Shown here one piece after another: positions 11,927 to 41,148 of a stretch of DNA of 64,000 bases. How positions within the stretch are numbered: the first letter of the stretch is position 1; each line of letters opens with the position of its first letter. This DNA comes from an uncultured Pelagibacteraceae bacterium. GTDB taxonomy: Bacteria > Pseudomonadota > Alphaproteobacteria > Pelagibacterales > AG-422-B15. A program made the translations under genes and the position numbers. The notes under the pieces are model-generated. The model was not told the DNA's origin and did not search any database. It saw nothing but the letters and a program-made list of their open reading frames with translations. Location: assembly GCA_902634765.1 (NCBI GenBank), contig CACPLH010000002.1, forward strand, positions 6,582 through 70,581, given 5' to 3'.

Positions 11927-11999
11927 ATTATTTTTATATATGTTTGATGTTTAATTTTGAAATAATATAGTATTTTCAAATCTAAAGTCACTAAAAATA

Positions 12000-13136: not shown

Positions 13137-13141
13137 ATTAA

Positions 13142-15036: not shown

Positions 15037-15049
15037 ATTATTCCTTTCG

Positions 15050-16210: not shown

Positions 16211-16217
16211 ATTTTTT

Positions 16218-17657: not shown

Positions 17658-17664
17658 TTAGAAT

Positions 17665-19089: not shown

Positions 19090-19103
19090 TCTTTATCCTT
19101 TCA

Positions 19104-20297: not shown

Positions 20298-20386
20298 AAT
20301 AATCCTTCAAAAGGTATAGATAAAAATTTGCTTTTAAATGACACAATATAAGATTATTAATTTTAAAAAAAATATATAGTTTTACA

Positions 20387-21295: not shown

Positions 21296-21298
21296 TAT

Positions 21299-22366: not shown

Positions 22367-22397
22367 ACAATTTGCGTAATACTATAGTTTTTGTTAA

Positions 22398-24518: not shown

Positions 24519-24567
24519 TTGCTCATTTTAATAATAATTTCATATAATTATTACTTACATTTATACA

Positions 24568-24597
24568 TTTACATTATCTTAATTTTCAGGCTAAAAT
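24568..24597 (+). promoter_or_regulatory. Candidate sigma70-type promoter for proX
   Basis: TTTACA (24568-24573), an 18-nt spacer, then TAAAAT (24592-24597). It sits in an unusually long 122-nt gap. AAGGGG RBS at 24624-24629. A TACATTTA tandem lies just upstream. Confidence 0.3.
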
Positions 24598-24640
24598 AAT
24601 TCATTAATTAAAAAATAAAAATTAAGGGGTTATAAAAAAT

Positions 24641-25645
24641 ATGAAAAAATCATTTTTCACAAATGCTTTTTTAGCTTTGATAATGTCTTCTTTTCTTGTT
24701 CTATCAGCCGGTACTGCCAATGCAAAACGTTTGACTGCTGCTGTAGCTGACTGGACAGGTGGTGAAATTACATGTCAGGTTGCTGTAAGCATTTTAGAAC
24801 AAGAACTTGGATATAAAGTTGAGAGAATTGTATTTCCGTCGGGTACAGGCCTATGGGAAGCAATTGCTGCAGGCGATATAGATTTCGCATGTGAAAGTTG
24901 GCCTGGATACGCTGAAGCTGACGATGTGATGCTAAATGCTCCATTATATTATGATGGTGAAGTGGTTCAGGAATATTCTGGAACAGGTGAAGTAATTGCC
25001 TTTACAACAGGTATCATCGGAGCTTCTGACTACTATGTTCCAAAGTATTTTATGGATGCAAATCCTGATTTTAATGGTTGGGAAGATCTAAATAAATTTA
25101 AAGCTGAATTTGCTACTGTTGAAACAGGCTCTAAAGGTAGACTGATCGGATGTCCAGTTGCTGGATGGAACTGTCATGACCAGAAAAGACTAGATATCAT
25201 GGGTATCGATTTTGAAGCAGTTGAGCTTGGAACTGAGACGGCGCTTTTAGCTGAAGCGCAAGGTGCTTTTGATCGTAAAGAACCATTTTTAATGTATCTT
25301 TGGGAACCTCATTTTTTCTTTGGTAAGAATGAAATGGTAGGTGTTGGACTTCCAACTCACCAGTCTTGTGATAGTTTTACTGAGGCTAACAACTGGAAAG
25401 ATTGTGGAATGGGATCTTGGCCCGCAAGTAACTGGCCAAAAGATTATACCATGAACTATATGAATCCAGAAGTGATGGCAAAACCTGAAAATGCTGAAGC
25501 TCTTGCGTTCTTCAAGAAAATGAAATTTCAGAATAGTGATCAAGCAAAAATGCTTGTAAGAGTAGGCGATGATGGATTATCAGTTGAAGAAGCTGTTCAA
25601 GAATGGAAAGATAGTTCGAGTGATTGGAAGAATTGGCTTCCATAA
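24641..25645 (+). CDS. proX: Glycine betaine-type periplasmic substrate-binding protein (ProX/OpuAC-like)
   Basis: 334 aa with a signal peptide ending ANA-K. Trp-rich segments (ADWTGGE, ESWPGY, GWNC) fit an aromatic-cage quaternary-amine binder. Confidence 0.85.
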   Translation: MKKSFFTNAFLALIMSSFLVLSAGTANAKRLTAAVADWTGGEITCQVAVSILEQELGYKVERIVFPSGTGLWEAIAAGDIDFACESWPGYAEADDVMLNAPLYYDGEVVQEYSGTGEVIAFTTGIIGASDYYVPKYFMDANPDFNGWEDLNKFKAEFATVETGSKGRLIGCPVAGWNCHDQKRLDIMGIDFEAVELGTETALLAEAQGAFDRKEPFLMYLWEPHFFFGKNEMVGVGLPTHQSCDSFTEANNWKDCGMGSWPASNWPKDYTMNYMNPEVMAKPENAEALAFFKKMKFQNSDQAKMLVRVGDDGLSVEEAVQEWKDSSSDWKNWLP

Positions 25646-25672
25646 GCTTAACTAATCTTTAAGTTTAAAAAA

Positions 25673-25703
25673 GGCCCTGTATATTTACAGGGTCTTTTTT
25701 TTT
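25673..25703 (+). terminator. Strong intrinsic terminator after proX
   Basis: GGCCCTGT pairs with ACAGGGTC (8 bp including one G-U), loop ATATTT, followed by T9. Confidence 0.75.
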
Positions 25704-25716
25704 AGTTTATTTAAAA

Positions 25717-26631
25717 ATGGAAAATCAAAAGCACAAATATCATTATACAATCAGTTTTGCATTGTTGATTGCTGCAGGAATGTGGGGACTATTTTGGCTG
25801 CCTCAAAGAGCTTTAGAATCTGGAGGTTTAACTGGAGGTTGGGCCACTATATCACAAATGGTAATTCCATTCCTAATACTGCTTCCGATATCAATTTGGA
25901 GGAAATCAAAAGGACAATCCTTTGGATTAGAATATCCATTGATTGGACTTTTATTTGGAGGAGGTATTGCTTGTTATGCAAATAGCTTTCTACTAACTGA
26001 CGTCGTAAGAGCGTTAATTCTTTTCTATATCACTCCAGTTTGGACAACCATTTTTGAAATGATTTTTCTGAGACAATTACCACGTATTTACAGATATATT
26101 ACTCTGATATTGGCATTATCAGGTGTTTGGATAGTATTTGGACAAGATGGAATAATACCGGTTCCAAAAAATTCTGGTGACTGGATTGCTCTTTTTGGAG
26201 GAATTTTAATAGCTGCTTCAGCAGTAAGAATGGAAATTAAGAAACCAGAGGGGATATATCCTATATTGTTTTCATTCTTTTTTTATGGAGGCTTATTTAC
26301 TTTAGTTCAGGCATTCTTTTTACGAGACTATCTCGGTTCAAGCCCATCATTTGATGCGTGGATCACAATGATGCCATGGCTGCTTTTAATTGCTGTTTTA
26401 TTTCATATCCCTACAAATATTGTTATTTTAGGTGCTCCAAGTAGGATAGGGGCTGGTTTATTTTCAATAATTATACTTTTTGAAATTGTCGTTGGATCGT
26501 TTAGTGCTGCAATATTAACTGATGAACTCATTGGATGGCGAGAAATATTGGGAAGCTCATTAATAATACTAGCTGGGTTAGCAGAAATTATTTTTGCTTC
26601 AAAGTCTGATAGTATTGAGAATTATAATTGA
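25717..26631 (+). CDS. EamA/DMT-family transporter
   Basis: 304 aa polytopic membrane protein with EamA-like repeats. Confidence 0.7.
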   Translation: MENQKHKYHYTISFALLIAAGMWGLFWLPQRALESGGLTGGWATISQMVIPFLILLPISIWRKSKGQSFGLEYPLIGLLFGGGIACYANSFLLTDVVRALILFYITPVWTTIFEMIFLRQLPRIYRYITLILALSGVWIVFGQDGIIPVPKNSGDWIALFGGILIAASAVRMEIKKPEGIYPILFSFFFYGGLFTLVQAFFLRDYLGSSPSFDAWITMMPWLLLIAVLFHIPTNIVILGAPSRIGAGLFSIIILFEIVVGSFSAAILTDELIGWREILGSSLIILAGLAEIIFASKSDSIENYN

Positions 26632-27548
26632 TTGAGTAACTTTATATGCTCTACAGTTGTTCCACAACAACCTCCAATGAGTTGAGCTCCAGCATCTTTC
26701 CATTTTTTAGCTTCGATTAAATAATCTTCTGGGGAAATAACACTGCTCATATCATAATTTGGAAAATTAAATACAGCGACTTCTGGATAAGCCATAATAG
26801 GTACATCATAAACTTCTCTGAGTTCTCTGATGCTTTCTTCTATTACACTGATATCACAATGCATAATACCAACAGCATCTAATTTATGGTGCTTAACATT
26901 ATTTATCATTTTCTTAAAAGTATACTCATAATCAGTTGTTAGAGCTATGAGACCATCTGGAATACTCCTTGAAGAAAATCCGGCCCATACTGGCAAACCA
27001 ACTTTACTAGCAGAGTCGAAAACAATCTCAATCCTATCTGGCCGATACATAAGTTCTAAAAAAATAAAATCACAACCATTATCAGCTAGGAAAAAAGCAA
27101 GTTCGTCAAAATTTTTCTGAAAATACTCAGGAGTAAGTTTTTTTCGATAATTTTCTCTCTCTTCTTGATTTTTAAAGGCATCTTCATATGGAATTTGATG
27201 AGACAGAGAGCCTCCTATAAGAACATCATCTCTACCAGTTTCTTTCCGCGCATCAAGAGCAGCATTTATTGCACTTAAGTTAATTTCCTCAAATTTATCA
27301 TCAACTCCCGCTACTTCGAGAACCATTCTGTTAGAAGCGTATGTATTGGTAGCAATAACTTTAGCACCTGCTTCAATATAATCTTTATGAATTTGTTTGA
27401 GTGTATCACCTTCAAGAGACCCGGTCGCACACCAGGAGTTATCCATTTTAACCCCTCTATTTTCAAGCTCTGATCCAGTAGCACCATCTAATAAAATAGT
27501 CTCTCCAGATTGAAGTAGTTCTAAAAAGTTTTTATATCGTTGATTCAT
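26622..27548 (-). CDS. Homocysteine S-methyltransferase domain protein (betaine-homocysteine methyltransferase-like)
   Basis: 308 aa. N-terminal LLDGATGSELE, a C-terminal GGCCGT zinc motif and an internal Cys fit the Pfam S-methyl_trans pattern. Located in a betaine gene neighbourhood. Confidence 0.8.
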   Translation of the reverse strand: MNQRYKNFLELLQSGETILLDGATGSELENRGVKMDNSWCATGSLEGDTLKQIHKDYIEAGAKVIATNTYASNRMVLEVAGVDDKFEEINLSAINAALDARKETGRDDVLIGGSLSHQIPYEDAFKNQEERENYRKKLTPEYFQKNFDELAFFLADNGCDFIFLELMYRPDRIEIVFDSASKVGLPVWAGFSSRSIPDGLIALTTDYEYTFKKMINNVKHHKLDAVGIMHCDISVIEESIRELREVYDVPIMAYPEVAVFNFPNYDMSSVISPEDYLIEAKKWKDAGAQLIGGCCGTTVEHIKLLNQL

Positions 27549-27663: not shown

Positions 27664-28800
27664 ATGTCAAAAGGAATTATCTATACACCAAGGGTAAGAA
27701 AGTCACCATTTTTTGAGGAAACATTAAAATACGGTGCAACAAATTTTACTACTTATAATCATATGACCATGCCTGTAGGCTATACGACTCCAGAACAAGA
27801 ATATCAGTCTCTTATTAATGATGTCACTCTCTGGGATGTGGCTGCAGAAAGACAAGTGGAAATTGTAGGCGAAGATGCTTCTAAATTTGTTCAGTACATG
27901 ACACCTCGAAATTTATCTACGTTCAAGGATAATTTCTGTCGATATGCATTCATGACTGATGAGAATGGAGGAATTATTAACGATCCATTAATATTAAAAT
28001 TTAATGAAAATAAGTATTGGTTGAGTATTGCAGACTCAGACGCAATTTTATGGTGTAAAGGAGTCGCATTATCTGGAAATTATAAGGTAAGTATTTCAGA
28101 ACCTGAGGCATGTCCATTATCATTACAAGGTCCTCGTTCAAAAGAATTGATGCGAAAAGTAACTAACGATGACCCAAAAATAATGGGATTAAAATATTAT
28201 CAATTTATAGAAGCTAACTTATTTGGTATTGATTTAATTATCGCGCGGAGTGGGTGGAGTAATCAGTTTGGATACGAAATTTATATAACGAGAGAAATAG
28301 ATGGACCTACCTTGTGGAATTCCCTAATGGAAGCTGGTAAAGAGTTCAAAATTGTACCTAGTTGTCCTAATCAAATTGATAGAATTGAAGCGGGCATGAT
28401 ATCTCACCAAGGTGATACATCCCTGGATGAAAATCCTCTTGAGTTGAACTTACCTAAGTTTTATGACTTGGATCAGGAATCAGATTTTGTAGGCAAAGAA
28501 GCTTTAAAAAAAATTAGAGATGAGGGAATAAAAAAACAGTTTACTGGATTTAAAATTTCAGGAAAAAAGATTGGTTATAATATGGCTAGAATTCCTCTTT
28601 ATGATGAGAAATCTGAAAAAAAAGGATTTATTACAAGCTGTATTTATAGCCCAAATTTTGGATGTAATATTGCCTTGGGATACGTAGATATTGATCTAGT
28701 ATCATCAACTGATATTTTTAATATCAACCATGATGGCGAAGAGAGAGATGTTGAGGTTGTTCCTTTGCCATTTAGCTCAAGACTAGAAAAAATGGAATGA
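27664..28800 (+). CDS. DmdA-like GcvT-family demethylase
   Basis: I start it at ATG 27664 (MSKGIIYTPRVRKSPFF). WDVAAERQVEIVGEDA and ARSGWSNQFGYEIYI closely echo the DMSP demethylase DmdA motifs as I remember them. Confidence 0.8.
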   Translation: MSKGIIYTPRVRKSPFFEETLKYGATNFTTYNHMTMPVGYTTPEQEYQSLINDVTLWDVAAERQVEIVGEDASKFVQYMTPRNLSTFKDNFCRYAFMTDENGGIINDPLILKFNENKYWLSIADSDAILWCKGVALSGNYKVSISEPEACPLSLQGPRSKELMRKVTNDDPKIMGLKYYQFIEANLFGIDLIIARSGWSNQFGYEIYITREIDGPTLWNSLMEAGKEFKIVPSCPNQIDRIEAGMISHQGDTSLDENPLELNLPKFYDLDQESDFVGKEALKKIRDEGIKKQFTGFKISGKKIGYNMARIPLYDEKSEKKGFITSCIYSPNFGCNIALGYVDIDLVSSTDIFNINHDGEERDVEVVPLPFSSRLEKME

Positions 28801-29477
28801 CATTTTTAAAAAGTAAATTTCATAAATTTATTTTTATCTTTACTATTCTTATATCTATTTTTTCAGGATGGTTTTTTTCAGAATATATTATTAAACAAAA
28901 AAATGACGAAACAAACTATATCAACGCTAGTTTTAATCTAATAGATCATCATGGCAATGAGGTTTCTAACCATGATTATATAAATTTTAATAAAGTATTT
29001 TTTTTTGGATTTACTCATTGTCCAGATGTTTGTCCAATGGGAATTAGTGTTTTATCAAATGTTATTGACGAATTAAGTGATCTATCAATTAACAAATTTT
29101 TATTTATTAGCGTAGATCCTGATAGGGATACGCCAAAAAGAATGAATAAATACTTATCAAATTTTAATAACGAAATTATTGGTCTTACGGGTGACTATGA
29201 GTCGTTGAAGCCTGTTTGGGAAAACTTCTTTGTCCATGTTAAAAGTGACATGACACAAGACAAGGAGCCCTATTCTAATTTTGATAATATAAAAAAACAA
29301 AACTCACATGACAATCATAATTCAGATAATCATTCGCTTAGTGAAGTGTCAGAAAATAATTATATTGTGCAACACAGTGCGTTTTATTTTATATTTGATC
29401 GTAAAGATAATCTAAAAACAATTTTACCATTTGGATCAAGTTCTGAAGAAATACTAGCTGAATTATCAAATCTATAA
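28797..29477 (+). CDS. SCO1/SenC-family copper chaperone / thiol-disulfide oxidoreductase
   Basis: 226 aa. Has an N-terminal TM anchor, the THCPDVCP CxxxC motif (29019-29033), and a distal His in VQHSAFYF. An ATGA overlap joins it to the upstream gene. Confidence 0.8.
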   Translation: MTFLKSKFHKFIFIFTILISIFSGWFFSEYIIKQKNDETNYINASFNLIDHHGNEVSNHDYINFNKVFFFGFTHCPDVCPMGISVLSNVIDELSDLSINKFLFISVDPDRDTPKRMNKYLSNFNNEIIGLTGDYESLKPVWENFFVHVKSDMTQDKEPYSNFDNIKKQNSHDNHNSDNHSLSEVSENNYIVQHSAFYFIFDRKDNLKTILPFGSSSEEILAELSNL

Positions 29478-29484
29478 TTTATTT

Positions 29485-29727
29485 ATGAAAAAAATTATAA
29501 GCTATTTTATTTTACTAATTTTATTTTATGCATGTTCAGAGAGAATAGAATATAAAGAATTAGCCTCAGAAAAAGCAAAAGAAATGAATTGTATGGATGA
29601 TATAGAGCTTCTTGTGAAAAATGATAAAGTTGAATTGTGGGCTTCATATAGTCAATCTGAAGACGGGTTACTTTGTGTTTATACATGTAAAAATGATGTT
29701 TGTTATTATTCAACTGAAAGAGATTAA
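29485..29727 (+). CDS. Small secreted/lipoprotein-like Cys-rich hypothetical protein
   Basis: 80 aa. Has a signal-like N-terminus ending LFYAC (weak lipobox) and four further Cys residues (C36, C64, C68, C73). Confidence 0.45.
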   Translation: MKKIISYFILLILFYACSERIEYKELASEKAKEMNCMDDIELLVKNDKVELWASYSQSEDGLLCVYTCKNDVCYYSTERD

Positions 29728-29729
29728 AA

Positions 29730-30602
29730 ATGAAAAGTAATACATCTGACTTTTATATTGTAATAATTCCAATTGTAATAATGATTTGCCTTGCTTGGAC
29801 GTACTTATTTATTTTCTCAAATGAAATGGACATGGACATGAGTTCAATGGACATGAGTTCAATGGATATGAACAATGACATGAGTATGGACTCTCAGGAC
29901 ATGGACATGAGTTCAGTTGATATGAACAATGACATGAATATGGATTCATCAAAAAAATTTTCTTTATTCGCAATGCCAATGGATAGCAACTGGTCTATTA
30001 ATGATTTTATTGTAATGAATCTAATGTGGATAATTATGATGTTTGCAATGATGTTTCCATCATCACTAATGTTCCTTTTTCTTTTCTATTCTATGAGAAG
30101 CAATATGGCTATTGTAAAAAATCCAAAATCAGAAATTGTCTTACTGTCTTTAATGTACTTTTCTATATGGACTTTATTTTCAATTGCAGCTTGTTATCTT
30201 CAATATATTTTTCATAATTATAGTGTAGTAAACATGATGGGAATGTTAACAAGCAACAAGGCTGCCGCAATAACATTAATTGGCGCAGGATTATTTCAGT
30301 TTTCTAGTTTTAAAGATGCTTGTTTAGAAAAATGTAGAAATCCACTTGCATTTATTATGGGCACGAAAATTAGTTCCAATTACGATGTTTTAAAGCTAGG
30401 ACTTTTACACGGCCTGTATTGCCTTGGATGCTGTTGGGCGCTTATGCTCATTTTATTTGTCAACGGTGTTATGAATATGCTCTGGATTGTGATCCTTACA
30501 ATAGCCGTTTTATCTGAAAAAATAATTCCATTTGAGAAACTTACTTCTAGATTTTTTGGCCTAATTCTAGTATTTTGGGGTTCTTATTTAATTTTTATTT
30601 AA
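29730..30602 (+). CDS. DUF2182-like predicted metal-binding integral membrane protein
   Basis: 290 aa polytopic protein. HGLYCLGCCWALM matches the conserved CxGCCW segment I associate with DUF2182. A Met/Asp repeat loop follows TM1. Confidence 0.65.
   Translation: MKSNTSDFYIVIIPIVIMICLAWTYLFIFSNEMDMDMSSMDMSSMDMNNDMSMDSQDMDMSSVDMNNDMNMDSSKKFSLFAMPMDSNWSINDFIVMNLMWIIMMFAMMFPSSLMFLFLFYSMRSNMAIVKNPKSEIVLLSLMYFSIWTLFSIAACYLQYIFHNYSVVNMMGMLTSNKAAAITLIGAGLFQFSSFKDACLEKCRNPLAFIMGTKISSNYDVLKLGLLHGLYCLGCCWALMLILFVNGVMNMLWIVILTIAVLSEKIIPFEKLTSRFFGLILVFWGSYLIFI
29826..29945 (+). repeat. Nested in-frame tandem repeat encoding a Met/Asp-rich loop
   Basis: Consists of 15-nt ATGGACATGAGTTCA units plus two imperfect copies of about 48 nt (ATGGACATGAGTTCAATGGATATGAACAATGACATGAGTATGGAC and ..CAGTTGATATGAACAATGACATGAATATGGAT). 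Encodes MDMDMSSMDMSSMDMNNDMSMDSQDMDMSSVDMNNDMNMD. Confidence 0.85.
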
Positions 30603-30605
30603 CCT

Positions 30606-31286
30606 ATGACCGCAAATCCTTTTAATCTTCATTGGGAAATTAATGGCCACTTTCTATTGAACTGTAATTGTGATGTTTTTTGTAATTGTCCTATGTCCTT
30701 AGGGCGTGCAGTTCCTAATTCACCGAATGGAAAATGTTTTTCCTGGTGGGGAATCATTATTGAAGATGGTTGGGCTGAAGAAAAATGGTCTGGTTTTAAT
30801 CCAATGAAGAGAGAGCAAAAGGGTATTATTGATTTAAGCGGTTTGAACGTTGCAATTTTGCTTGAAGTTCCTGGGCCATTATCTATGGGAGGATGGACAG
30901 CGGGTTTATATTTTGATGAAAAGGCGTCTGATGATGCAGCTGATGCATTATTAAAAATATTTTCAGGTAATGCAGGAGGGCAAACTGGATGGTTTTCATC
31001 TATGATTTCTAATTTCTTGGGAGTTAAGAGAGCATCTATCACTTATAAAGAAACAGAAACTGGTTGGACTTATACAATTCCAGATATCTTAGATGGTAGA
31101 ATTGAAAAAGAGCCAGGTCTACAAAGAGGCGAAGACATCAAGGTTTCCAATCTTAAATATTGGGTTGCCCCCGAGATTATTGTAGGTCGAGGTGGAAAAA
31201 GAAGTAAAATTAAAGACCATGGACGTAATTGGGATTTCACAGGAGGAAGTGCAGAATACTGCGCCGTTGAGTGGTCAGGTCCATAA
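30606..31286 (+). CDS. DUF1326-like Cys-rich protein
   Basis: 226 aa. Five N-terminal cysteines (NCNCDVFCNCP...GKC) fit the family description of about 210 aa with 5 conserved N-terminal Cys. Confidence 0.65.
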   Translation: MTANPFNLHWEINGHFLLNCNCDVFCNCPMSLGRAVPNSPNGKCFSWWGIIIEDGWAEEKWSGFNPMKREQKGIIDLSGLNVAILLEVPGPLSMGGWTAGLYFDEKASDDAADALLKIFSGNAGGQTGWFSSMISNFLGVKRASITYKETETGWTYTIPDILDGRIEKEPGLQRGEDIKVSNLKYWVAPEIIVGRGGKRSKIKDHGRNWDFTGGSAEYCAVEWSGP

Positions 31287-31301: not shown

Positions 31302-33737
31302 ATGAAATCTAGAGCAAAAGCAGTTGTGATAGGTGGAGGTGTTGTAGGTGTAAGTACTTTATATCACCTCGCTAAAAAAGGGTGGTCAGATGTTGTTCTG
31401 TGTGAGAGAAAAGAACTAACCTCAGGTTCAACTTGGCATGCCGCTGGCCTCCTACCTCTTTTCAATATGAGTTACTCAGTTGGACAGCTTCACAAATATT
31501 CAGTTAAGTTTTATCAAGAACTACAAAAAGCGACAGGTCAAGAAGTAGGGTTTAGTAATGTTAGTAATATTCGATTGGCAGAAACACAAGATCGAATGGA
31601 TGAATATAAACAATATGCTGGGGTTGCTCAAACTATTGGAGTTGATGTTAAATTTCTATCGCCAGATGATATAAAAGAAATCTGGCCTTTATGTAATACC
31701 GATGGTCTTATAGGTGCAATTCAACATCCTGAAGATGGATATATTCAACCGAATGATTTGACTCAAGCACTAGCAAAAGGAGCGAGATCGCTAGGTGCTG
31801 AAATTTATCGTCAAACAACTGTAATTGGCTTAGAGCAGCAGCCGGACGATTCATGGATTGTTAAAACTGATAAAGGCGATATTCATGCAGATGTAATTAT
31901 TTCATGTTCTGGAAACTTTGTAAGACAAACTGGTGAAATGGTTGGATTAGATATCCCAGTTATTCCTGTTGAACATCAATACATTGTGACTGAGCCTCAT
32001 CCAGAAATTGTAAAAAGAAAAGAAGCTGGTCTCCCTGAAATGGGTGTGTTGAGAGGGTCTGATGGCTCTTGGTATATGAGAGAAGAAGCTGGGGGATTAA
32101 TTTTAGGACCATATGAAAAAGGTGCGCCATGCTGTTATGTAGATGGACCTAGCAATGATTGTGAATATGAACTATTTCAAGAAGATTTGGATCGTCTTGG
32201 ACCTCATATTGAACATGCGATTAATAGAGTTCCCATCTTTGGTGAAGTGGGTATTAAAAAAGTTTATAACGGTGCAATTTGTTATACACCAGATGGTAGC
32301 CCAATTGTAGGGCCTGCATGGGATAGAAAAAATCTTTATTTAAATGATGGACATTCTTTTGGCATTACTGCTGCTGGTGGAGCTGGATGGCAATTAGCCG
32401 AATGGATTGTTGATGGAGAACCAACCGTTGATATGCTTGGTGTTGAACCTAGAAGGTTTGGGGATTATGCTTCAAAAGCTTATCTTATTAAGAAGAATGA
32501 AGAAGCTTACGCAAATGTATTTACAATTCATTACCCTGATGAAGAGCGAGATGCTGGAAGACCTCTAAGGCAAGCACCTTGTTATGATCGATTAAAAAAC
32601 TTAGGTGCAGTTTTTGGACAAAAATTTGGCTGGGAAAGAGCAAACTGGTTTGCTCCTGAAGGTGTTGAACAAGTTGATGACTGGTCTTTCAGAAGATCTA
32701 AATGGTTTGAGCACATTGGAAACGAATGTAAAAACGTCGTTGAAAATGTAGGCCTGTTAGATATGAGTGCATTTGCAAAATGTAGAATAAGTGGCCCTGG
32801 CGCCGAATCTTTTCTTGATAACCTCGTTGCAAATAAATTGCCAAAAAAGATTGGAAGAACAAACCTTTGTCACGCTCTTAATACAAAAGGTGGTGTTCAT
32901 TCTGAATTTACTATTATGCGTGAAAGTGAAGATAGTTTTTATTGCGTATCAGCAGGAGCTTGGCAAAGACTAGATCATGATTGGATCAAAAAGCATATGC
33001 CTAATGATAGATCTGTTTCTATGGAGAATCTTACAAACAGTATGGGAGTTTTGGTTGTTGCTGGACCAAAATCTAGACAATTGCTTGAAAAAATATCAAA
33101 TGATGACTTTTCGAATGAAGCGTTTCCATGGCTATCTGGAAAAATGATCAATGTAGGTTTGGCTGAAACATTGGCCTTGAGAGTAAACTTTGTAGGTGAA
33201 TTAGGATGGGAACTGCATATGCCTATTGATTCACAAAATACAATTTTTGATGCGCTAATGGAAGCTGGTGAGGAATTTGGAATCAAACCTTTTGGTATCC
33301 GAGCGATGGACTCGCTTAGAATAGAAAAATCTTATCGATTAGTTGGTACTGAATTATCGATTGAATATGCAGCCTATGAATCTGGTTTAGATCGGTTTGT
33401 ACATCCGAATAAAGGTGATTTTATTGGTCGAGATGCACTTGTTCAGTGGAGGGAAAAGGGTTTTGATAATAAATTTGTTACGTTAGAAGTTCATGATGTA
33501 ACCGATGCCGATGCTTTAGGTAATAATCCAATATACCAAGATGGCAATGTTGTTGGGAGAGCAACTGGCGGAAATTATGGTTTTAGAATTCAAAAATCAA
33601 TTGGTCTTGCAATGGTAAATCCAAAATGTGCCGAACCTGGCACAAAACTTACTATGGATATTTTAGGTACTATGCATGATGTTACTGTTATTGAAGAAAG
33701 CCCTTATGACCCAACCAATGAAAAGCTTAGATCATAG
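31302..33737 (+). CDS. Dimethylglycine dehydrogenase-like (FAD DAO domain fused to GcvT folate-binding domains)
   Basis: 811 aa. Has the GGGVVGVS FAD motif, STWHAAGL, and a C-terminal aminomethyltransferase-like region. AAGGAG RBS present. Confidence 0.88.
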   Translation: MKSRAKAVVIGGGVVGVSTLYHLAKKGWSDVVLCERKELTSGSTWHAAGLLPLFNMSYSVGQLHKYSVKFYQELQKATGQEVGFSNVSNIRLAETQDRMDEYKQYAGVAQTIGVDVKFLSPDDIKEIWPLCNTDGLIGAIQHPEDGYIQPNDLTQALAKGARSLGAEIYRQTTVIGLEQQPDDSWIVKTDKGDIHADVIISCSGNFVRQTGEMVGLDIPVIPVEHQYIVTEPHPEIVKRKEAGLPEMGVLRGSDGSWYMREEAGGLILGPYEKGAPCCYVDGPSNDCEYELFQEDLDRLGPHIEHAINRVPIFGEVGIKKVYNGAICYTPDGSPIVGPAWDRKNLYLNDGHSFGITAAGGAGWQLAEWIVDGEPTVDMLGVEPRRFGDYASKAYLIKKNEEAYANVFTIHYPDEERDAGRPLRQAPCYDRLKNLGAVFGQKFGWERANWFAPEGVEQVDDWSFRRSKWFEHIGNECKNVVENVGLLDMSAFAKCRISGPGAESFLDNLVANKLPKKIGRTNLCHALNTKGGVHSEFTIMRESEDSFYCVSAGAWQRLDHDWIKKHMPNDRSVSMENLTNSMGVLVVAGPKSRQLLEKISNDDFSNEAFPWLSGKMINVGLAETLALRVNFVGELGWELHMPIDSQNTIFDALMEAGEEFGIKPFGIRAMDSLRIEKSYRLVGTELSIEYAAYESGLDRFVHPNKGDFIGRDALVQWREKGFDNKFVTLEVHDVTDADALGNNPIYQDGNVVGRATGGNYGFRIQKSIGLAMVNPKCAEPGTKLTMDILGTMHDVTVIEESPYDPTNEKLRS

Positions 33738-33748
33738 AAAAATCTCTA

Positions 33749-34828
33749 ATGTCTAAGGCGTTAGATTTTTATCTTGATTTATGTTCTTCTGGGGCGATTG
33801 AAAAAGACCAAAATCAAATCGATTTACTAACAGAATTAGAGATATTTCTATCTAACTCTGACGAGAATTTTTTTTCAAAAATTTTTAAATTTTCATCACA
33901 AGAAAATTCTTTAACTTGTTTTTATTTACACGGCAATGTTGGATCTGGAAAAACTCTTTTAATGGATTTAATTTCAAAAGTAATTTTATCCAAGAAGTTT
34001 ATGAGAATTCATTTTCATGAATTCATGATTAAAACTCATAATTCTCTCCATGAATTAAGAGCTAAGAACTATTCAAAAGATGACTTGATTGCAAGTTACG
34101 CAAAAATGATTCAATTAGAAACAGACATAATTTTTTTTGATGAATTCCAAGTTACAAACATTGCTGACGCAATGATACTAAGCCAGCTTTTTACTGAATT
34201 CTTTAATAGGAAGATAAAAATAGTTTTAACTACAAATATATTTCCAGATGATTTATATAAAGATGGTTTGCAAAGAGATCTTTTTTTACCCTTTATCGAG
34301 CTTATTAAGAAAAAATCAAAAATCTTTGAACTAAATACAGGTAAAGACTATAGGAAATTAAATCTAAAAAATGATGAAGTTTACTTTTCTCCTATAAATT
34401 TAGCTACATCTCATAAAATAAATGATTTGTACATTAAACTTTCTGAGAACAGTGAAGAAATTAATAAAATTATAAACGTAAAAGGAAGAGAAGTTGTAAT
34501 AAAGAGATTGGCTAAAAGAGTATCTAGGTTTTATTTCGATGAGATATGTGGACTGCCTTTGGGCGCCGAAGATTACCTAAGCATGATAAGCTTTTTTGAT
34601 ACAATTATTATAGAAAATATAAAAAACTTTTCTAATGAAAGTATAAATGAGCAACTTAGATTTATAAACCTTGTTGATGTATTATATGACAATAATATTA
34701 ATTTAGTACTTAGCAGTACAGTGAATATTAGTGAAATAGACTCCGCTTTTCATTTAAAAGAAAAATTTAAAAGAACACGGAGTAGACTTGAAGAAATGAA
34801 ATCAAGAAAATATAGAGACACATCATGA
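33749..34828 (+). CDS. AFG1/ZapE-family ATPase
   Basis: 359 aa. Has Walker A GNVGSGKT, Walker B IIFFDEF, and the AFG1-like N-terminal LxxD..Q region. Confidence 0.8.
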   Translation: MSKALDFYLDLCSSGAIEKDQNQIDLLTELEIFLSNSDENFFSKIFKFSSQENSLTCFYLHGNVGSGKTLLMDLISKVILSKKFMRIHFHEFMIKTHNSLHELRAKNYSKDDLIASYAKMIQLETDIIFFDEFQVTNIADAMILSQLFTEFFNRKIKIVLTTNIFPDDLYKDGLQRDLFLPFIELIKKKSKIFELNTGKDYRKLNLKNDEVYFSPINLATSHKINDLYIKLSENSEEINKIINVKGREVVIKRLAKRVSRFYFDEICGLPLGAEDYLSMISFFDTIIIENIKNFSNESINEQLRFINLVDVLYDNNINLVLSSTVNISEIDSAFHLKEKFKRTRSRLEEMKSRKYRDTS

Positions 34829-36054
34829 AAGTTGCAGTAATTGGAGCAGGAATAGTTGGCTTGTCTACTGCAAATTGGCTGAAGAGATATGGTCAGGATG
34901 TGACACTTTTTGATAGAGAAGATCCAGGCAGTCAAGCCAGTTTTGGAAATGCAGGAACATATGCAAAATATGCCAATATACCAACTAATTCATCATCATT
35001 TTTTTATCTTTTTCCATATTTATTACTAAATAAAAATAGTCCCTTATTTTTTAAAAAAGGAAAATTTATTCAATCCTTGCCATGGCTGATGCAATATTTA
35101 AGCAATTGCAGACAGTCGAAAGTTAGAGATACATCAAATAAACTAACTACATTACTTTCATTAGTTGATGAAGGATACGAAGATTTATTTAATGATGCTG
35201 ATATTGAAAATTTAATTTCACGCGAAAGTATTTTTTATGTCTGGTCAAATAAATTATTTTATAATTCTGCAAGGAAAGATTTTGAAACTCGAGAAAAAAC
35301 TGGGGTAAAAATAGAAATTATTTCTAAAAATGAAATCAATGATGTTGAGCCAAATATAAATAATATTTTTTACAAAGGGGCTTTATTTAAAGGATCATAT
35401 TTTGCAAAAAATCCAAAAAAAATCAGTGAAAAACTACTGCAGCTCTTTATTGAAAAGGGTGGAAATTTTAAAAAAGAAAAGATTGAAGAAATTAAAATTC
35501 TAGACACAAATAAAGTAAATATTCACACAAATGAAAATACTTATATTTATGATCGCATCGTTTTATGTGCAGGAGTATGGTCAAAAAAATTAACCGATAA
35601 ACTTGGTGAGAATATTCCATTAGCAAGTGAGAGAGGTTACCATTTGATGTATCCTCATCCTGAAAATTCAATCTCAAGACCAATTGCTTGGCAAGAAAGA
35701 GGCGTATATTTTACCCCAATGCAAGACGGTCTTCGAGCAGGAGGTGTGGTGGAGTTAGGGGGCAATTCAAATGAAATAAGTTCCAAGGTCGTGACTTATT
35801 TAAAAAGAGCTACAAAGGCCGTTTTTCCTAACATAAACAATCATTTAAGTGAATGGGTTGGCTTTAGACCTTCAGTGCCAGACTCTCTGCCGGTCATTGG
35901 ACAATCAAAAAAAAATCCTTATATTTACTACTGCTTTGGGCATCAACATATTGGATGGTCTCTAGGCGGTATCTCTGGAAAACTTATCGCACAAGAAATT
36001 TGTGCTAATAAAACAGATATAGATTTAAAACCTTTTTCTGTAGGAAGATTTTAA
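34825..36054 (+). CDS. FAD-dependent oxidoreductase (D-amino-acid dehydrogenase/DAO family)
   Basis: 409 aa. N-terminal [14 protein letters not shown] and DAO-type C-terminal GHQHIGW. An ATGA overlap joins it to the upstream gene. Confidence 0.8.
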
Positions 36055-36056
36055 TT

Positions 36057-37298
36057 ATGAAATATTCTGCAATTAATTTAGTTCGGAATGCCTTTTCCTA
36101 TCATGAAAATTGGCAAAAAGCATGGAGTAGTCCAGAGTTAAAAAAAGAATATGATGTAATAATAGTTGGTGGTGGGGGCCATGGATTGGGTACAGCTTAC
36201 TATTTAGCAAAAGAATTTGGAGTTAAAAACATTGCCCTTTTAGAAAAAGGATGGATTGGTGGAGGCAATACTGGAAGAAACACTACAATAATTAGATCAA
36301 ATTATTTATGGGATGAAAGCGCTGCACTTTACAACCACGCTGTTAACTTATGGGAAGGGTTATCTAGTGAACTTAACTTTAATGTAATGTTTTCTCAGAG
36401 AGGCTTATATCACCTTGCACACTCAGTTCATGATATGCAGGAGATTACTCGTCGAGCATATTCAAATTACTTAAATGGAATCGATGCTGAAATACTTAAT
36501 CAGGATCAGGTAAAGAAAAATATACCTCATATGAATGTGAATGGAAGATATCCAGTCTTAGGAGCAATACTTCAACGAAGAGCTGGAACTGCAAGACACG
36601 ACGCAGTTGCATGGGGTTATGCTCGAGCTGCAGAGAATTTAGGAGTTGATATTATTCAAAACTGTGAAGTTACTGGAATAGATGTTTCCAATGGAACTGT
36701 TACAGGACTGCAGACAACCAAAGGATCGGTTAATGCAAAAAAAGTAGGTCTTGTTCCAGCTGGACACAGTTCTGTACTAGCTAATATGGCTGGTTTTCGA
36801 TTACCAATAAGTTCTGTTCCTCTACAGGCTTTGGTAAGTGAGCCGATAAAACCAATTTTAGACTGCGTAATTATGTCTAATACAGTACATGTATACGTGA
36901 GCCAATCTGACAAAGGAGAGCTTGTTGTTGGAGCAGGTTCAGATTCCTATAATTCTTATTCTCAAAGAGGTTCATTTGATATGATTGAACATATTATGGG
37001 ACCATTAACTGAATTATTTCCAATATTTTCTCGATTAAAAATGTTACGACAATGGGGAGGAATTGTAGACGTTACTCCCGACAGAAGTCCGATAATAGGA
37101 AAAACTCCTATTGAAAATTTATTTATTAATTGTGGCTGGGGTACAGGAGGCTTTAAAGCAACACCTGGTTCGGCACATGTATTTGCTGAAACTGTTGCGA
37201 AAGGAGAGCCAAATAAAATTGCTGCTCCATTTTCGATTGAAAGACATTTTAGTGGCGCTTTAGTTGATGAAGCTGCAGCTGCAGCGGTGGCTCATTAG
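36057..37298 (+). CDS. soxB: Sarcosine oxidase beta subunit
   Basis: 413 aa with [22 protein letters not shown]. Full-length similarity to heterotetrameric SoxB. Confidence 0.9.
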
Positions 37299-37302
37299 TT
37301 AT

Positions 37303-37578
37303 ATGTTTGTTATTAAGTGTCCATATTGTGGTGAAAGAGATCAAACTGAATTCTCATGTCATGGAGAAGCTCATATTGCAAGGCCAGAAAACCCAGAAAC
37401 CCTTACTGATGAAGAGTGGGGAGAATATCTTTTTATTAGATCAAATAAAAAAGGCATCCATTATGAAAGATGGACGCATGATCATGGTTGTAGACGATGG
37501 TTCAATGTAATGAGAGACACTATTTCTGATGAAATACTTGCAACTTACAAAATGGGTGAGGAAAAACCTAAATCATAA
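37303..37578 (+). CDS. soxD: Sarcosine oxidase delta subunit
   Basis: MFVIKCPYCGERDQTEF is the typical SoxD N-terminus. I start it at ATG 37303 rather than the track's 37264, which overlaps soxB. Confidence 0.88.
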   Translation: MFVIKCPYCGERDQTEFSCHGEAHIARPENPETLTDEEWGEYLFIRSNKKGIHYERWTHDHGCRRWFNVMRDTISDEILATYKMGEEKPKS

Positions 37579-37580
37579 TT

Positions 37581-40500
37581 ATGAGTAATCAAAATAGAAT
37601 ATACAAAGGAGGAAGAATCGATAGAGATCAAGCTATTAATTTTAAGTTTAATGGTAAAGAATACATTGGATATCAAGGAGATACACTTGCATCTGCATTG
37701 TTAGCTAATGATGTTCATTTAATAGGTAGAAGTTTCAAATACCATAGACCAAGAGGAATACTCACTTCTGGCTCTGAAGAGCCAAATGCTCTGGTACAGC
37801 TTGGTTTAGGAGCAAGGACTGAGCCTAACATGAGAGCTACTGAAATTGAGATTTATGAAGGCCTTGAGGCCTCTAGTCAAAATTGTTGGCCATCAGTGAA
37901 TTTTGATATTGGCAGTATCAATAACTTTCTATCAAGAGTTTTTCCTGCTGGTTTTTATTATAAGACTTTTATGTGGCCACCAAGTTTATGGCTATTCTAT
38001 GAACACTTTATTCGAAAAGCAGCTGGACTTGGAGTTGCTCCAACAGCCAAGAATCCTGATCGATATGAGCAAAAATTTCACTACTGTGATATCCTTGTAG
38101 TAGGAGGAGGCGCCTCAGGGTTAATGTCAGCTCTTGCAGCTGGAAGATCAGGCTGTGATGTTCTACTTATTGATGAAAAGCCTGAGCCAGGAGGATACTT
38201 AAGAAATACATCAGCAAAAATTGATAATCTAAATTCAAATGACTGGACAAACGAAATTTTAAAAGAATTGGAGTCTTATGATAATGTTACAATTCTAAAT
38301 CGAACAGCTGTAATGGGATATTATGACTATAATTATCTTACAGCTCTTCAAAAAGTTACAAATCACTTACCTTATTTATCTGATAAAATGCCGAGGGAGA
38401 GATATTGGAGAATAAGAGCTAAAAAAGTTATTTTGGCACAAGGTGCGTTTGAGAGACCTCTTGTATTTTCAGGAAATGATCGGCCGGGAATTATGTTAGC
38501 CTCTGCAGCCAGAACATACCTTAATCAATTTGGTGTTTTGCCCGGAAAATCAGTTATCCTTTTCACAAATAATGACCATGCCTATGGAACAGCAATTGAT
38601 TTTGCAAATAAAGGAGCAAAGGTAACAATTGTAGACAATAGAGAAGATATTCCTTCTGAGTTGAGTGATAGATGTAATAAAGTAAAAATTAAAATTTATC
38701 CATCTCATTCAATAATTAATACCCAAGGGTACCAAAAAGTTAAAAAAGTTGAGATACAAAAAGTTGATCAAGATAATAATGAACTAACTGGCAGTCTAAG
38801 AGAAATTGAATGTGATCTTGTTCTAATGTCAGGTGGATGGAATCCTTCGGTTCAACTATTTAGTCAATCAAGAGGTAAGCTTGAATATCATAGTAAATTA
38901 AATTCATTCATTCCAAAAGATTTGATTAAAAACCAAAAGGTTGTTGGATGCAATAATGGAGACTTTAATTTATTAGAAGTTTTAAAAAATTCTTATCAAG
39001 CAGGTTTAGATTTTGCAACTGAACTCGGAAAGTCTGCAAATAAAAGTTTAGAAATTGAAACTGCATTTGAAGACTTGGAGTTTACCGAAGCGAAGGTTGA
39101 ACCATATATGATTGGAAAAAAGAAAGTTACTCATGGATCTAAACACTTTGTTGATTTTCAACATGATGTAACAGCAGCTGATATTTTTCTAGCGCAAAGA
39201 GAAGGATATATAAGCGTTGAGCATACTAAGCGATACACGACTACTGGAATGGGAACCGATCAGGGAAAAACGTCAAATGTTAATGCTTTAGCTTTAATGT
39301 CACATATTCACGATAAGCCAGTTGACAATATCGGTCATACTACCTTTAGACCGCCTTATTCTCCACAAACAATAGGAGCCATTGCAGGTAGAAACGTTGA
39401 TCATTTATTTGATCCTGAGAGAAAGACAGCTATTCATCAATGGCATGTTGATAATGGTGCTGAATTTGAAGATGTAGGTCAATGGAAAAGACCACACTAC
39501 TTTCCTCAAAAAAATGAAAACATTCACGATGCTGTAAATAGAGAATGTAGGGCTGTAAGAAATAGCTTAGGTATTCTTGATGCCTCCACATTAGGTAAAA
39601 TTGATTTACAGGGACCTGATGTCGCAAAGTTTCTAAACCTTATATATACCAATGCATGGTCAAAGCTTGAGGTAGGTTCTTGTCGTTATGGTTTAATGTG
39701 TAATGAGCATGGAATGGTATTTGATGATGGAGTCACAACCAGAATTTCAGAAAATCGATATCATATGACCACCACTACTGGTGGCGCTGCGAGAGTTATG
39801 TCATGGTTAGAGGAATTTCTTCAAACTGAGTGGCTTGATATGGAAGTTTTTTGTACTTCTGTTACGGAGCAATGGACTGTTCTCAGTATTTCTGGCCCTA
39901 ACTCAAGAGAGTTTTTATCAAGTCTTACTGATATAGATATTTCAAAGGGAGCCTTTCCTTTCATGAAAATGAAAGAGGGTAAAGTGTGCGGAATTGATGC
40001 AAGAATATTTAGAATTAGTTTTACGGGTGAATTGAGTTTTGAAATTAATGTTCCATCTAGATATGGTTTATTCGTTTGGAATGAGTTTATGAAGCATGGA
40101 AAAAAATATGACATTACTCCTTATGGCACTGAGTCAATGCATGTCTTAAGAGCGGAAAAAGGCTTTATCATTGTTGGACAAGATACTGATGGCAGTGTTA
40201 CTCCTAAAGATATAAATATGGATTGGATTGTTTCTAAGAAAAAAGAAGATTTTCTTGGTAAGCGTTCTTTTTCAAGGTCAGATACAAGACGAACTGATAG
40301 AAAACAACTTGTAGGTCTTTTAGTAAATGACAAAAAGACTGTCTTGCCTGAAGGCAGTTATGTTGTTGATGAAGCAAAACCGAGGCCACCAATGGACATG
40401 ATTGGCCATGTAAGTTCTAGTTATTATAGTCCAACATGCGATCATCCCATTGCTCTTGCATTAATTAAAAATGGTTTAAACCGTATGGGTGATGTTGTGA

Positions 40501-40589
40501 AAATTCCACTAATGAGCGGTAAAGTAATCGATGCAACAATCACAGACTCAATATTTTATGATAAGGAAGGGGCTCGAAATAATGAGTAA
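37581..40589 (+). CDS. soxA: Sarcosine oxidase alpha subunit
   Basis: 1002 aa. Has GDTLASALLAN..GRSFKYHRPRGI, the VVGGGASG dinucleotide motif, and a C-terminal GcvT-like folate domain. Confidence 0.9.
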   Translation: MSNQNRIYKGGRIDRDQAINFKFNGKEYIGYQGDTLASALLANDVHLIGRSFKYHRPRGILTSGSEEPNALVQLGLGARTEPNMRATEIEIYEGLEASSQNCWPSVNFDIGSINNFLSRVFPAGFYYKTFMWPPSLWLFYEHFIRKAAGLGVAPTAKNPDRYEQKFHYCDILVVGGGASGLMSALAAGRSGCDVLLIDEKPEPGGYLRNTSAKIDNLNSNDWTNEILKELESYDNVTILNRTAVMGYYDYNYLTALQKVTNHLPYLSDKMPRERYWRIRAKKVILAQGAFERPLVFSGNDRPGIMLASAARTYLNQFGVLPGKSVILFTNNDHAYGTAIDFANKGAKVTIVDNREDIPSELSDRCNKVKIKIYPSHSIINTQGYQKVKKVEIQKVDQDNNELTGSLREIECDLVLMSGGWNPSVQLFSQSRGKLEYHSKLNSFIPKDLIKNQKVVGCNNGDFNLLEVLKNSYQAGLDFATELGKSANKSLEIETAFEDLEFTEAKVEPYMIGKKKVTHGSKHFVDFQHDVTAADIFLAQREGYISVEHTKRYTTTGMGTDQGKTSNVNALALMSHIHDKPVDNIGHTTFRPPYSPQTIGAIAGRNVDHLFDPERKTAIHQWHVDNGAEFEDVGQWKRPHYFPQKNENIHDAVNRECRAVRNSLGILDASTLGKIDLQGPDVAKFLNLIYTNAWSKLEVGSCRYGLMCNEHGMVFDDGVTTRISENRYHMTTTTGGAARVMSWLEEFLQTEWLDMEVFCTSVTEQWTVLSISGPNSREFLSSLTDIDISKGAFPFMKMKEGKVCGIDARIFRISFTGELSFEINVPSRYGLFVWNEFMKHGKKYDITPYGTESMHVLRAEKGFIIVGQDTDGSVTPKDINMDWIVSKKKEDFLGKRSFSRSDTRRTDRKQLVGLLVNDKKTVLPEGSYVVDEAKPRPPMDMIGHVSSSYYSPTCDHPIALALIKNGLNRMGDVVKIPLMSGKVIDATITDSIFYDKEGARNNE

Positions 40590-41148
40590 TACGAATTCCC
40601 CTTTGCAAAGTAAAGATCAAATAAAATCATCCAATATTAATCTTGAATATATGGATTTTATTGGAAAAATTAATTTAAGGATAAGAGATGCTGACACTGA
40701 TGTTCTCAATAAGGTTTCAGCTTACTTGGGTTACGAGTTACCAAAAAATTCTGGTGAAGTAAGTACAAATGATGAGTCTAGAACTGCATGGCTTGGACCA
40801 AATGAATTTTTAATTCAATGCGCTGAAGATAAAAAAGACAATTTTATTGAGGATCTTAATAGAAATTTAAATGATTGTTTCTATGCTTTAACGGACGTGT
40901 CTGATTATTACATAACTATTCGATTGAGCGGGAAAAAAAGTATTGATGTTTTAGAAAAAGGCTGTCCTTTAAATTTTAAAGAATATTTAAAAAATAAAAA
41001 TACGTGTGCTCAGTCTTATATATCCAAAGGAACAGTATTAATTGATAGATTATCAGAAGATCAAGTTTTTGATATCTTGATTAGATGGAGTTTCGCGGAT
41101 TATTTGTGGGATTGGCTCTCAGACTCCTGCTCTGAGTTTGTAGACTAG
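40582..41148 (+). CDS. soxG: Sarcosine oxidase gamma subunit
   Basis: Position after soxA and size (about 189 aa from ATG 40582, an 8-nt overlap ATGAGTAA). The sequence itself is weakly diagnostic. Confidence 0.75.
   Translation: MSNTNSPLQSKDQIKSSNINLEYMDFIGKINLRIRDADTDVLNKVSAYLGYELPKNSGEVSTNDESRTAWLGPNEFLIQCAEDKKDNFIEDLNRNLNDCFYALTDVSDYYITIRLSGKKSIDVLEKGCPLNFKEYLKNKNTCAQSYISKGTVLIDRLSEDQVFDILIRWSFADYLWDWLSDSCSEFVD

Follow-up and report, generated by a model that had tools for sequence, protein, structure and literature searches.

The window analysed here is a stretch of 64,000 nucleotides from an uncultured bacterium of the Pelagibacteraceae (SAR11), in which four consecutive genes on the plus strand code for a Sco protein, a small lipoprotein (p80), a DUF2182 membrane protein and a DUF1326 soluble protein. 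They are placed between a gene for a relative of the dimethylsulfoniopropionate (DMSP) demethylase DmdA and a gene resembling that of dimethylglycine dehydrogenase (DMGDH). This SAR11 cluster is a module of the DmdE/DmdF and PpoB2 type to which copper chaperones have been added, and it is not a categorically new system. Its features, from the demethylase onward, are the following:

27664..28800, plus strand: DmdA-like demethylase of the GcvT family, tetrahydrofolate-dependent, with GCV_T and GCV_T_C domains.
28797-29477, plus strand: Sco (SCO1/SenC), 226 amino acids (aa), PF02630.
29485-29727, plus strand: p80, a lipoprotein of 80 aa with a lipobox, outside the Pfam and NCBIfam families.
29730-30602, plus strand: DUF2182, a DmdE-like polytopic membrane protein of the PpoB2 family, 290 aa, PF09948.
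29814..30005, plus strand: coding region of the Met/Asp-rich loop of DUF2182 (residues 29-92), recognized by composition, topology and tandem repeats.
30606-31286, plus strand: DUF1326, a DmdF-like soluble protein, 226 aa, PF07040.

The original prediction, made from the letters and their open reading frames, had described these four reading frames together with their motifs (CPDVCP, CLGCCW and five N-terminal cysteines), an ATGA overlap and short spacers, and all of this was borne out. The start of the Sco gene overlaps the stop of the demethylase (the letters read AAAATGGAATGACAT), and the spacers from the demethylase through Sco, p80, DUF2182 and DUF1326 to DMGDH are -4, 7, 2, 3 and 15 nucleotides. 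The assignments to SCO1-SenC, DUF2182 and DUF1326 were tested by profile search and all match well above the cutoffs; the flanking genes (GcvT-family demethylase, DMGDH-like gene and soxBDAG) are also as they had been described. The co-transcription and translational coupling that had been deduced from the spacing find no such support. Short spacers are no evidence of coupling here because they are the norm throughout this genome: across the window the same-strand spacers have a median of 5 nucleotides, 76% of them are of 15 nucleotides or less, and about 96% of the window is coding. Promoter and terminator scans of the region from 26 to 42 kb gave no more sites than shuffled sequence and are uninformative on operon structure, and an Rfam scan of the whole window gave 0 matches.

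The DUF2182 protein matches PF09948 with E = 2.8e-53 (181 bits against a cutoff of 28.7). The current Pfam name of this family, also known as COG5486, is 'PpoB2, copper chaperone', and the earlier statement that neither DUF2182 nor DUF1326 has been assigned a function no longer holds, since PpoB2 was described in 2007 and the DmdE/DmdF pair in 2026 (PMC12992908). In Marinomonas mediterranea, PpoB2 is a membrane protein that delivers copper to a tyrosinase, and ppoB2 mutants lose copper-enzyme activity (PMC2855505). The SAR11 protein shares with it the Pfam family, the polytopic architecture, metal motifs of Met and Cys and the apparent position of helper to a co-encoded soluble client. The client in Marinomonas is the tyrosinase PpoB1, however, whereas the adjacent soluble protein here is DUF1326, and the experimental evidence for copper is from the Marinomonas protein. 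Neither the window nor the SAR11 loci contain a tyrosinase or multicopper oxidase. By analogy with PpoB2, DUF2182 may transfer copper to a client protein.

As judged on alignments of 16 and 57 sequences, the invariant residues of DUF2182 include W23, M108, P110, C198, C202, C231, C234, C235 and E263. The transmembrane motif MWxxMMxAMMxPS (residues 99-111), whose Met cluster M99-M108 lies on one helix, is invariant in the family, as are C198-x3-C202 and the membrane-embedded C231-x-G-C234-C235 (CLGCCW); the C198-x3-C202 pair is probably cytoplasmic because its segment is rich in Lys and Arg. The first transmembrane helix is followed by a loop of 64 residues with 16 Met, 14 Asp/Glu and 0 His, which the positive-inside rule predicts to be periplasmic. 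Its DNA carries a tandem repeat of 15 nucleotides (ATGGACATGAGTTCA, at 29832-29871) within a wider array at 29826-29937; the number of copies differs between strains, and homologues, 259 to 313 aa long, differ in the loop. This loop is absent from the homologues outside SAR11. Methionine clusters and Met-rich loops are typical of Cu(I), not of zinc. An AlphaFold model of the protein (pLDDT 80) has about seven helices and a disordered loop. Foldseek found no solved-fold match for this model, with nothing at E below 0.7, and no homology to DsbD/CcdA or MerT was revealed by Pfam or Foldseek. No exact copy of the window's DUF2182 protein is on record.

The DUF1326 protein, soluble and lacking a signal peptide, matches PF07040 with E = 1.2e-34 (120.5 bits against a cutoff of 25). 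Its five cysteines (C20-x-C22-x3-C26-x-C28 ... C44) are all invariant in 18 diverse sequences. The AlphaFold model (pLDDT 85, pTM 0.85) is an all-beta cone with, according to Foldseek, a weak likeness to the acetoacetate decarboxylase fold (TM 0.40), from which no functional assignment is drawn; there are no sequence relatives in the PDB. Proteins 100% identical to the window's DUF1326 are found in the Pelagibacteraceae single-cell genome AG-333-D21 and in two Pelagibacterales metagenome-assembled genomes, and all close relatives are labelled Pelagibacterales or Pelagibacteraceae. Beyond SAR11 the closest relatives are found in Entotheonella, Myxococcota and Acidobacteriota (45-53% identical), and not among Roseobacter-labelled proteins. 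The SAR11 protein also carries an insertion of about 11 residues (EKWSGFNPMKR..., residues ~57-70) that homologues outside SAR11 lack, as seen by comparing loci L001-L008, L026 and L052-L054 with the window. A form of 215 aa without the insertion occurs only in genomes without DUF2182 and p80; in L026, DUF2182 and p80 are lost and the insertion is still kept. This insertion might be a docking element for DUF2182.

The gene upstream of the quartet has a mechanical reading-frame start at TTG 27604 and a likely start at ATG 27664, which gives a protein of 378 aa, the length of its orthologues in related loci. Its best NCBIfam match is the DMSP demethylase model, with 348 bits under a cutoff of 410, and it is 42% identical to Pelagibacter ubique DmdA (3TFH). 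This makes the protein a paralogue distinct from the canonical SAR11 DmdA, whose gene in Pelagibacter sits in a different block of 12 genes (preprint 10.64898/2026.04.03.716430). Downstream, the DMGDH-like gene directly follows DUF1326 in every SAR11 variant with downstream sequence at hand.

A DUF2182–DUF1326 pair linked to demethylation has been described in Roseobacters, where the two genes, dmdE and dmdF, lie upstream of dmdA (Fu et al., EMBO J 2026, PMC12992908). Both are required for growth on DMSP, and the dmdE mutant is partly rescued by deletion of dmdA. Purified DmdF consumes H2O2, and release of O2 from H2O2 has been reported (PMC12992908). The SAR11 locus resembles this system in the adjacency of DUF2182 and DUF1326 (3 nucleotides apart here), in the presence of a DmdA-family gene in the same cluster and in belonging to marine alphaproteobacteria. 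The differences are several: the SAR11 pair is downstream, and not upstream, of the DmdA-like gene; DmdR, acuI and dinB are absent from the locus, the partners being instead a DmdA paralogue (four genes upstream) and DMGDH; and the pair is preceded by Sco, the lipoprotein and, in sister lineages, PCuAC, with a Met-rich loop in DUF2182.

The pair is also found well beyond these two groups. A scan of species-representative genomes yielded 39 loci outside SAR11 (Entotheonella, Myxococcota, Acidobacteriota, Gammaproteobacteria and others), 33 of which have both DUF2182 and DUF1326. Among the neighbours of the pair are AMP-binding CoA ligases (9 loci), DmdA-like GcvT proteins (8 loci; the DmdA model gives three representatives 350-375 bits, below its threshold as with the protein of the window), homocysteine S-methyltransferases of PF02574 (6 loci, all in marine Acidobacteriota and always immediately downstream), BCCT and SSF transporters and, in Entotheonella, a subunit of a haem-dependent N-demethylase. 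In 10 of the 39 loci the direct neighbour of the pair is a methyl-metabolism gene (DmdA-like or BHMT-like), and 17 loci have one no more than 5 kb away; up to 1 kb from the pair such genes reach a density of 1.43 per 10 kb, eight times the 0.18 per 10 kb seen at 6-10 kb. Eight of these ten direct adjacencies come from marine Acidobacteriota, so that the ten cannot be counted as independent. At least five architectures nevertheless tie the pair to DmdA-like or BHMT-like genes: those of SAR11, Roseobacters, Gammaproteobacteria and two types in Acidobacteriota. The proposed link to methyl-group catabolism thus gained ground, both from these other phyla and from the conservation of the block across SAR11. 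DUF2182 and DUF1326 would fit a first module, the SAR11 version of DmdE/DmdF, that travels with onium demethylation genes (DmdA-like, BHMT-like, DMGDH) in several phyla. As a further observation, in loci of the Entotheonella type (L009, L010, L058, L060 and L061) the pair lies 3' of a molybdopterin oxidoreductase, and genes resembling the alpha subunit of haem-dependent oxidative N-demethylase, EgtB and EgtD (ergothioneine-type) are found nearby.

Within SAR11, for which 41 loci were retrieved, the interval from the 378-aa DmdA-like gene to DMGDH comes in three variants. Variant A contains SCO1 and DUF1326 only and is very abundant, one protein being present on 332 contigs. Variant B is the quartet as in the window. 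Variant C, the commonest (about 30 of the 41 loci), is the quartet with PCuAC (PF04314) between p80 and DUF2182, and some of its PCuAC proteins have the canonical Cu(I) motif H-x10-M-x21-H-x-M; PCuAC is absent from the window, where the p80–DUF2182 gap is just 2 nucleotides. In all these loci p80 and DUF2182 are either both present (B and C) or both absent (A). The quartet had been presented as one unit, and what holds is that the block is conserved across SAR11 lineages; it is not indivisible, since Sco and PCuAC are missing from the 39 loci outside SAR11 and p80 and DUF2182 are lost in variant A. The conservation of the block is meaningful because gene order in Pelagibacter otherwise decays fast: among 135 complete genomes only about 10% of adjacencies are shared at 85% average nucleotide identity, although operonic blocks persist (preprint 10.64898/2026.04.03.716430). 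Compared with the window, the variant C loci show identities of about 89% for the DmdA-like protein, 83% for DUF1326, 85% for DMGDH and 91% for SoxB, and of about 46% for SCO1, 50-61% for p80 and 53% for DUF2182. Overall, the identities of DUF1326 are 82-100%, on a par with the core enzymes. From this contrast it follows that selection constrains the cytoplasmic DUF1326 as strongly as it does the core enzymes, and that evolution is fast in the parts exposed in the envelope. Some loci are mosaics: in L018, L019 and L021 identity to the window is 95-100% for DUF1326, 64-70% for SCO1 and 81-83% for the DmdA-like protein, and BHMT is 67-68% identical in L018 and L021 and 99% in L019. This pattern suggests recombination breakpoints inside the block.

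The envelope components that precede the pair in SAR11 are as follows. Sco matches PF02630 with E = 2.9e-34 (118 bits against a cutoff of 22.8), and its best PDB matches are ScoI and SCO1. The protein is anchored by an N-terminal transmembrane segment (residues 11-29), followed by a periplasmic domain of thioredoxin fold, and its motif CPDVCP contains Cys75 and Cys79; the copper ligands Cys75-x3-Cys79 and His192 align with those of Bradyrhizobium ScoI (4wbj). Directly ahead of the His ligand is an insert of 29 aa, rich in His, Asn and Asp (residues 157-185), which is found in all SAR11 variants with varying length. The p80 protein has a lipobox Cys17 and four conserved cysteines (C36 and C64-x3-C68-x4-C73). 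Its family is exclusive to SAR11, with 13 representative matches among 1.8 billion proteins, and it lies directly downstream of SCO1 in every locus examined; two proteins of about 900 aa (P0252 and P0253) were discarded as relatives on account of low-complexity repeats. Compared with the Sco and PCuAC chaperones of Thermus, Bradyrhizobium and Rhodobacter, the SAR11 Sco keeps the CxxxC motif, the His and the anchor, and the PCuAC of sister lineages keeps its Cu(I) motif. Unlike in those bacteria, the SAR11 genes are not beside cox, the Sco insert is His-rich and variable, the SAR11-only lipoprotein with four Cys stands between them, and PCuAC is missing from the window. Sco and p80, with PCuAC in sister lineages, would fit a second module, a periplasmic set of Cu(I) chaperones that joins the pair only in SAR11.

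That copper may be supplied specifically for organosulfur or methyl catabolism has a precedent in the mtoX–SCO1–mauG operon, which encodes a copper-dependent methanethiol oxidase (Eyice et al. 2017, PMC5739008). There too a Sco gene shares an operon with an enzyme of the DMSP demethylation route, but genes for SBP56/MtoX or MauG are absent from the window and from all related loci examined. The reading put forward here, tentatively and as something a little short of probable, is that the two modules are joined, so that the Cu(I) chaperones feed a PpoB2-type protein which loads the five-cysteine DUF1326, and that the latter protects or enables methyl-group oxidation. Cu(I) is the most likely cargo because of the PpoB2 precedent, the invariant path of Met and Cys and the Met-rich loop specific to SAR11. 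In such a mechanism, scarce periplasmic Cu(I) would be captured by Sco, PCuAC, p80 and the Met/Asp-rich loop of DUF2182; it would then move along the invariant Met and Cys of the DUF2182 helices to the cytoplasmic CxxxC, and from there to the CxCx3CxC...C site of DUF1326. The metal-loaded DUF1326 would remove a toxic by-product of methyl-group oxidation, peroxide or other, a role proposed because of the DmdF assay (PMC12992908) and because strain HTCC1062 has no catalase (PMC3315703). The arrangement would work like MerP–MerT–MerA, with a periplasmic binder, a membrane protein with a cluster of Cys inside the membrane and a pair of Cys on the cytoplasmic side, and a Cys-rich cytoplasmic acceptor; there is, however, no sequence or fold homology between the two systems, and the invariant methionines point to Cu(I) and not to Hg(II). 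Of the relay or sensor for a thiophilic metal, most likely Cu(I), that had been suggested originally, the metal part is thus reinforced by PCuAC in sister lineages, the Met/Asp-rich loop and the PpoB2 family name, and the role as a sensor is rejected, as the locus encodes neither a signalling domain nor a regulator.

Several findings weigh against this copper relay. Fu et al. left the function of DmdE open, and metals, cysteines and cofactors were outside their study (PMC12992908). The window contains no cuproenzyme as a client, and the fold of DUF1326 is unlike any known peroxidase or metallochaperone. Variant A keeps SCO1 and DUF1326 after the loss of DUF2182 and p80; in those genomes, therefore, DUF2182 is dispensable for DUF1326, and Sco has another job. 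No SCO1 or PCuAC homologue was found in any of the 39 loci outside SAR11. In addition, the best 120 of 1328 matches include no other Sco from SAR11, as would be expected if this one did housekeeping work for cytochrome oxidase; two lower-identity matches on long contigs, P0323 and P0325, were rejected because they come from other organisms. Finally, the znuABC/cobW setting of one Paracoccaceae pair looks like a zinc-starvation context and hints at zinc.

These observations on Sco lead to the main alternative, in which only DUF2182–DUF1326 is tied to methyl catabolism, and Sco, p80 and PCuAC do housekeeping work in assembling the CuA site of the aa3 cytochrome oxidase, sharing the block with the pair and giving no metal to it. 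This is a possible, if rather unlikely, explanation. Sco and PCuAC are the classical pair in CuA assembly, and their absence from the loci outside SAR11, the retention of Sco where DUF2182 and p80 are lost and the lack of a second Sco among those best matches are all in its favour; moreover, the block also includes the unrelated AFG1/ZapE gene, and tight spacing is genome-wide. It is less easily reconciled with the insertion of p80 and PCuAC exactly between Sco and DUF2182, with the joint presence or absence of p80 and DUF2182, with the experimental evidence for copper chaperoning in the DUF2182 family or with the gain of a Met-rich periplasmic loop in SAR11. The cox assembly genes, besides, are in another conserved Pelagibacter block (preprint 10.64898/2026.04.03.716430), and cox genes occur neither at 9-48 kb of the window nor in any related locus. 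Sco, and PCuAC where present, probably also serve CuA assembly, and the two-module reading and this alternative are compatible if Sco serves both routes.

The metal might also be another thiophilic one, most plausibly zinc, needed for example for the Zn(Cys)3 site of BHMT-type enzymes or the Zn site of SoxD. The all-Cys site of DUF1326 suits zinc as well as copper, and the BHMT-like gene stands immediately downstream of the pair in the six marine Acidobacteriota loci. In the Paracoccaceae locus (L099 5374-12807, reached via P0206) the pair is reversed, with DUF1326 before PpoB2, and lies beside a CobW/COG0523 GTPase and znuABC; the DUF2182 protein of this locus shares 39% identity with that of the window over 74% of the latter, and the setting is znu/cobW and not dmdA. 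Nevertheless, zinc is considered quite improbable, given the Cu(I)-type Met clusters in the helices and loop, the experimental precedent of the family, which is copper, and the copper chaperones that are the neighbours of the pair in SAR11. To our knowledge, the DmdA-type enzymes nearby need no metal.

A third possibility is that no metal is carried, and that electrons pass in a DsbD/CcdA-like thiol-disulfide relay from DUF1326 to DUF2182 and on to Sco and the lipoprotein, or that DUF1326 is a thiol peroxidase. The conserved Cys pairs in the helices and on the cytoplasmic side of DUF2182, the thioredoxin fold of Sco, the four conserved Cys of p80 and the consumption of H2O2 by purified DmdF would agree with it. 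Disulfide exchange, however, makes no use of the invariant Met cluster or the Met-rich loop, no fold or sequence similarity to DsbD/CcdA exists, the release of O2 from H2O2 points to a redox metal and not to thiol chemistry, and PpoB2 mutants lose copper-enzyme activity, so that this possibility is held to be slimmer still than zinc. As for chance juxtaposition by genome streamlining, which the original prediction had itself named and in which the four genes would have no functional tie to the methyl-oxidation genes, the dense coding and the unrelated AFG1/ZapE and MsrA genes interleaved in the region are consistent with it, but it is highly improbable for the four genes and largely refuted, indeed effectively excluded, for the DUF2182–DUF1326 pair, in view of the architectures and the eight-fold enrichment described above, of Roseobacter genetics that tie the pair to DmdA and of a block kept across divergent SAR11 (SCO1 ~45% identical) despite poor conservation of gene order elsewhere.

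The preferred reading, two modules joined around Cu(I), has consequences beyond this locus. SAR11 was reported to be without dmdE and dmdF by the study that gave these genes a central place in DMSP demethylation (PMC12992908), and this claim of 2026 is corrected here, as a pair of the DmdEF type does occur in SAR11, a major consumer of DMSP and glycine betaine. The link of the pair to methyl catabolism extends beyond Roseobacters to Acidobacteriota and Gammaproteobacteria. DmdE gains a testable function, the delivery of a thiophilic metal that is most likely Cu(I), and DmdF is suggested to be a metalloprotein; the supply of trace copper may thereby connect to marine organic sulfur and methyl cycling. 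A bolder version, regarded as unlikely, is that DUF1326 stands for a new enzyme class based on a Cu(I)-thiolate site (CxCx3CxC...C). Folded as a beta cone and loaded by a PpoB2-type protein, it would detoxify peroxide or another by-product of methyl oxidation in catalase-less SAR11. If that were true, the most abundant heterotroph of the ocean would need copper to demethylate DMSP and glycine betaine, and the presence or absence of p80, PCuAC and DUF2182 would be an adaptation to local copper availability.

On either side of the genes described so far, the region continues as follows:

26622..27548, minus strand: divergent homocysteine S-methyltransferase, BHMT-like (PF02574, E = 2e-46, plus an NCBIfam result).
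31302..33737, plus strand: DMGDH-like flavoenzyme with DAO, FAO_M, GCV_T and GCV_T_C domains.
33749-34828, plus strand: AFG1/ZapE ATPase.
34825-36054, plus strand: DAO-family oxidoreductase.
36057-37298, plus strand: soxB.
About 37303-37578, plus strand: soxD.
37581-40589, plus strand: soxA.
Ending at 41148, plus strand: soxG, the last gene of the conserved block 33749..41148.

The family of the BHMT-like gene also adjoins the DUF2182–DUF1326 pair in marine Acidobacteriota. The order AFG1/ZapE, DAO, soxBDAG is kept in every SAR11 locus that extends far enough. The AFG1/ZapE ATPase stands between DMGDH and DAO/soxBDAG in every SAR11 variant and is fast-evolving, with an identity of about 50% against 91% for SoxB. 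With their mechanical starts, soxD (TTG 37264) and soxG (ATG 40531) reach 35 and 59 nucleotides into the genes before them, and the true starts are probably later; in locus L012, soxD codes for 91 aa. A DUF983 gene (41152-41532) begins 3 nucleotides past soxG and is followed by a trio coding for an amine oxidase, DUF1365 and a cyclopropane-fatty-acid synthase (41578-44670).

Two oxidative-stress enzymes, MsrA (11420-11926, minus strand) and a glutathione peroxidase (47473-47940, plus strand), are encoded on either side of the methyl-oxidation region. MsrA is directly upstream of the DmdA-like gene in L013 (6282-6773) and L014. A second GcvT paralogue, of 447 aa (10028-11371 in the window), was compared in position with L001 and L013: in these other SAR11 lineages it is immediately upstream of the 378-aa DmdA-like gene, or has just MsrA in between. 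In the window the two are separated by about 16 kb (11420-27548), a stretch that contains MsrA, an enolase-superfamily gene, an AMP-binding ligase, a glyoxalase, a beta-lactamase-like gene, an amidase, an aldehyde dehydrogenase, an Fe-ADH, an EamA gene, the opuA transporter, a second EamA gene and BHMT.

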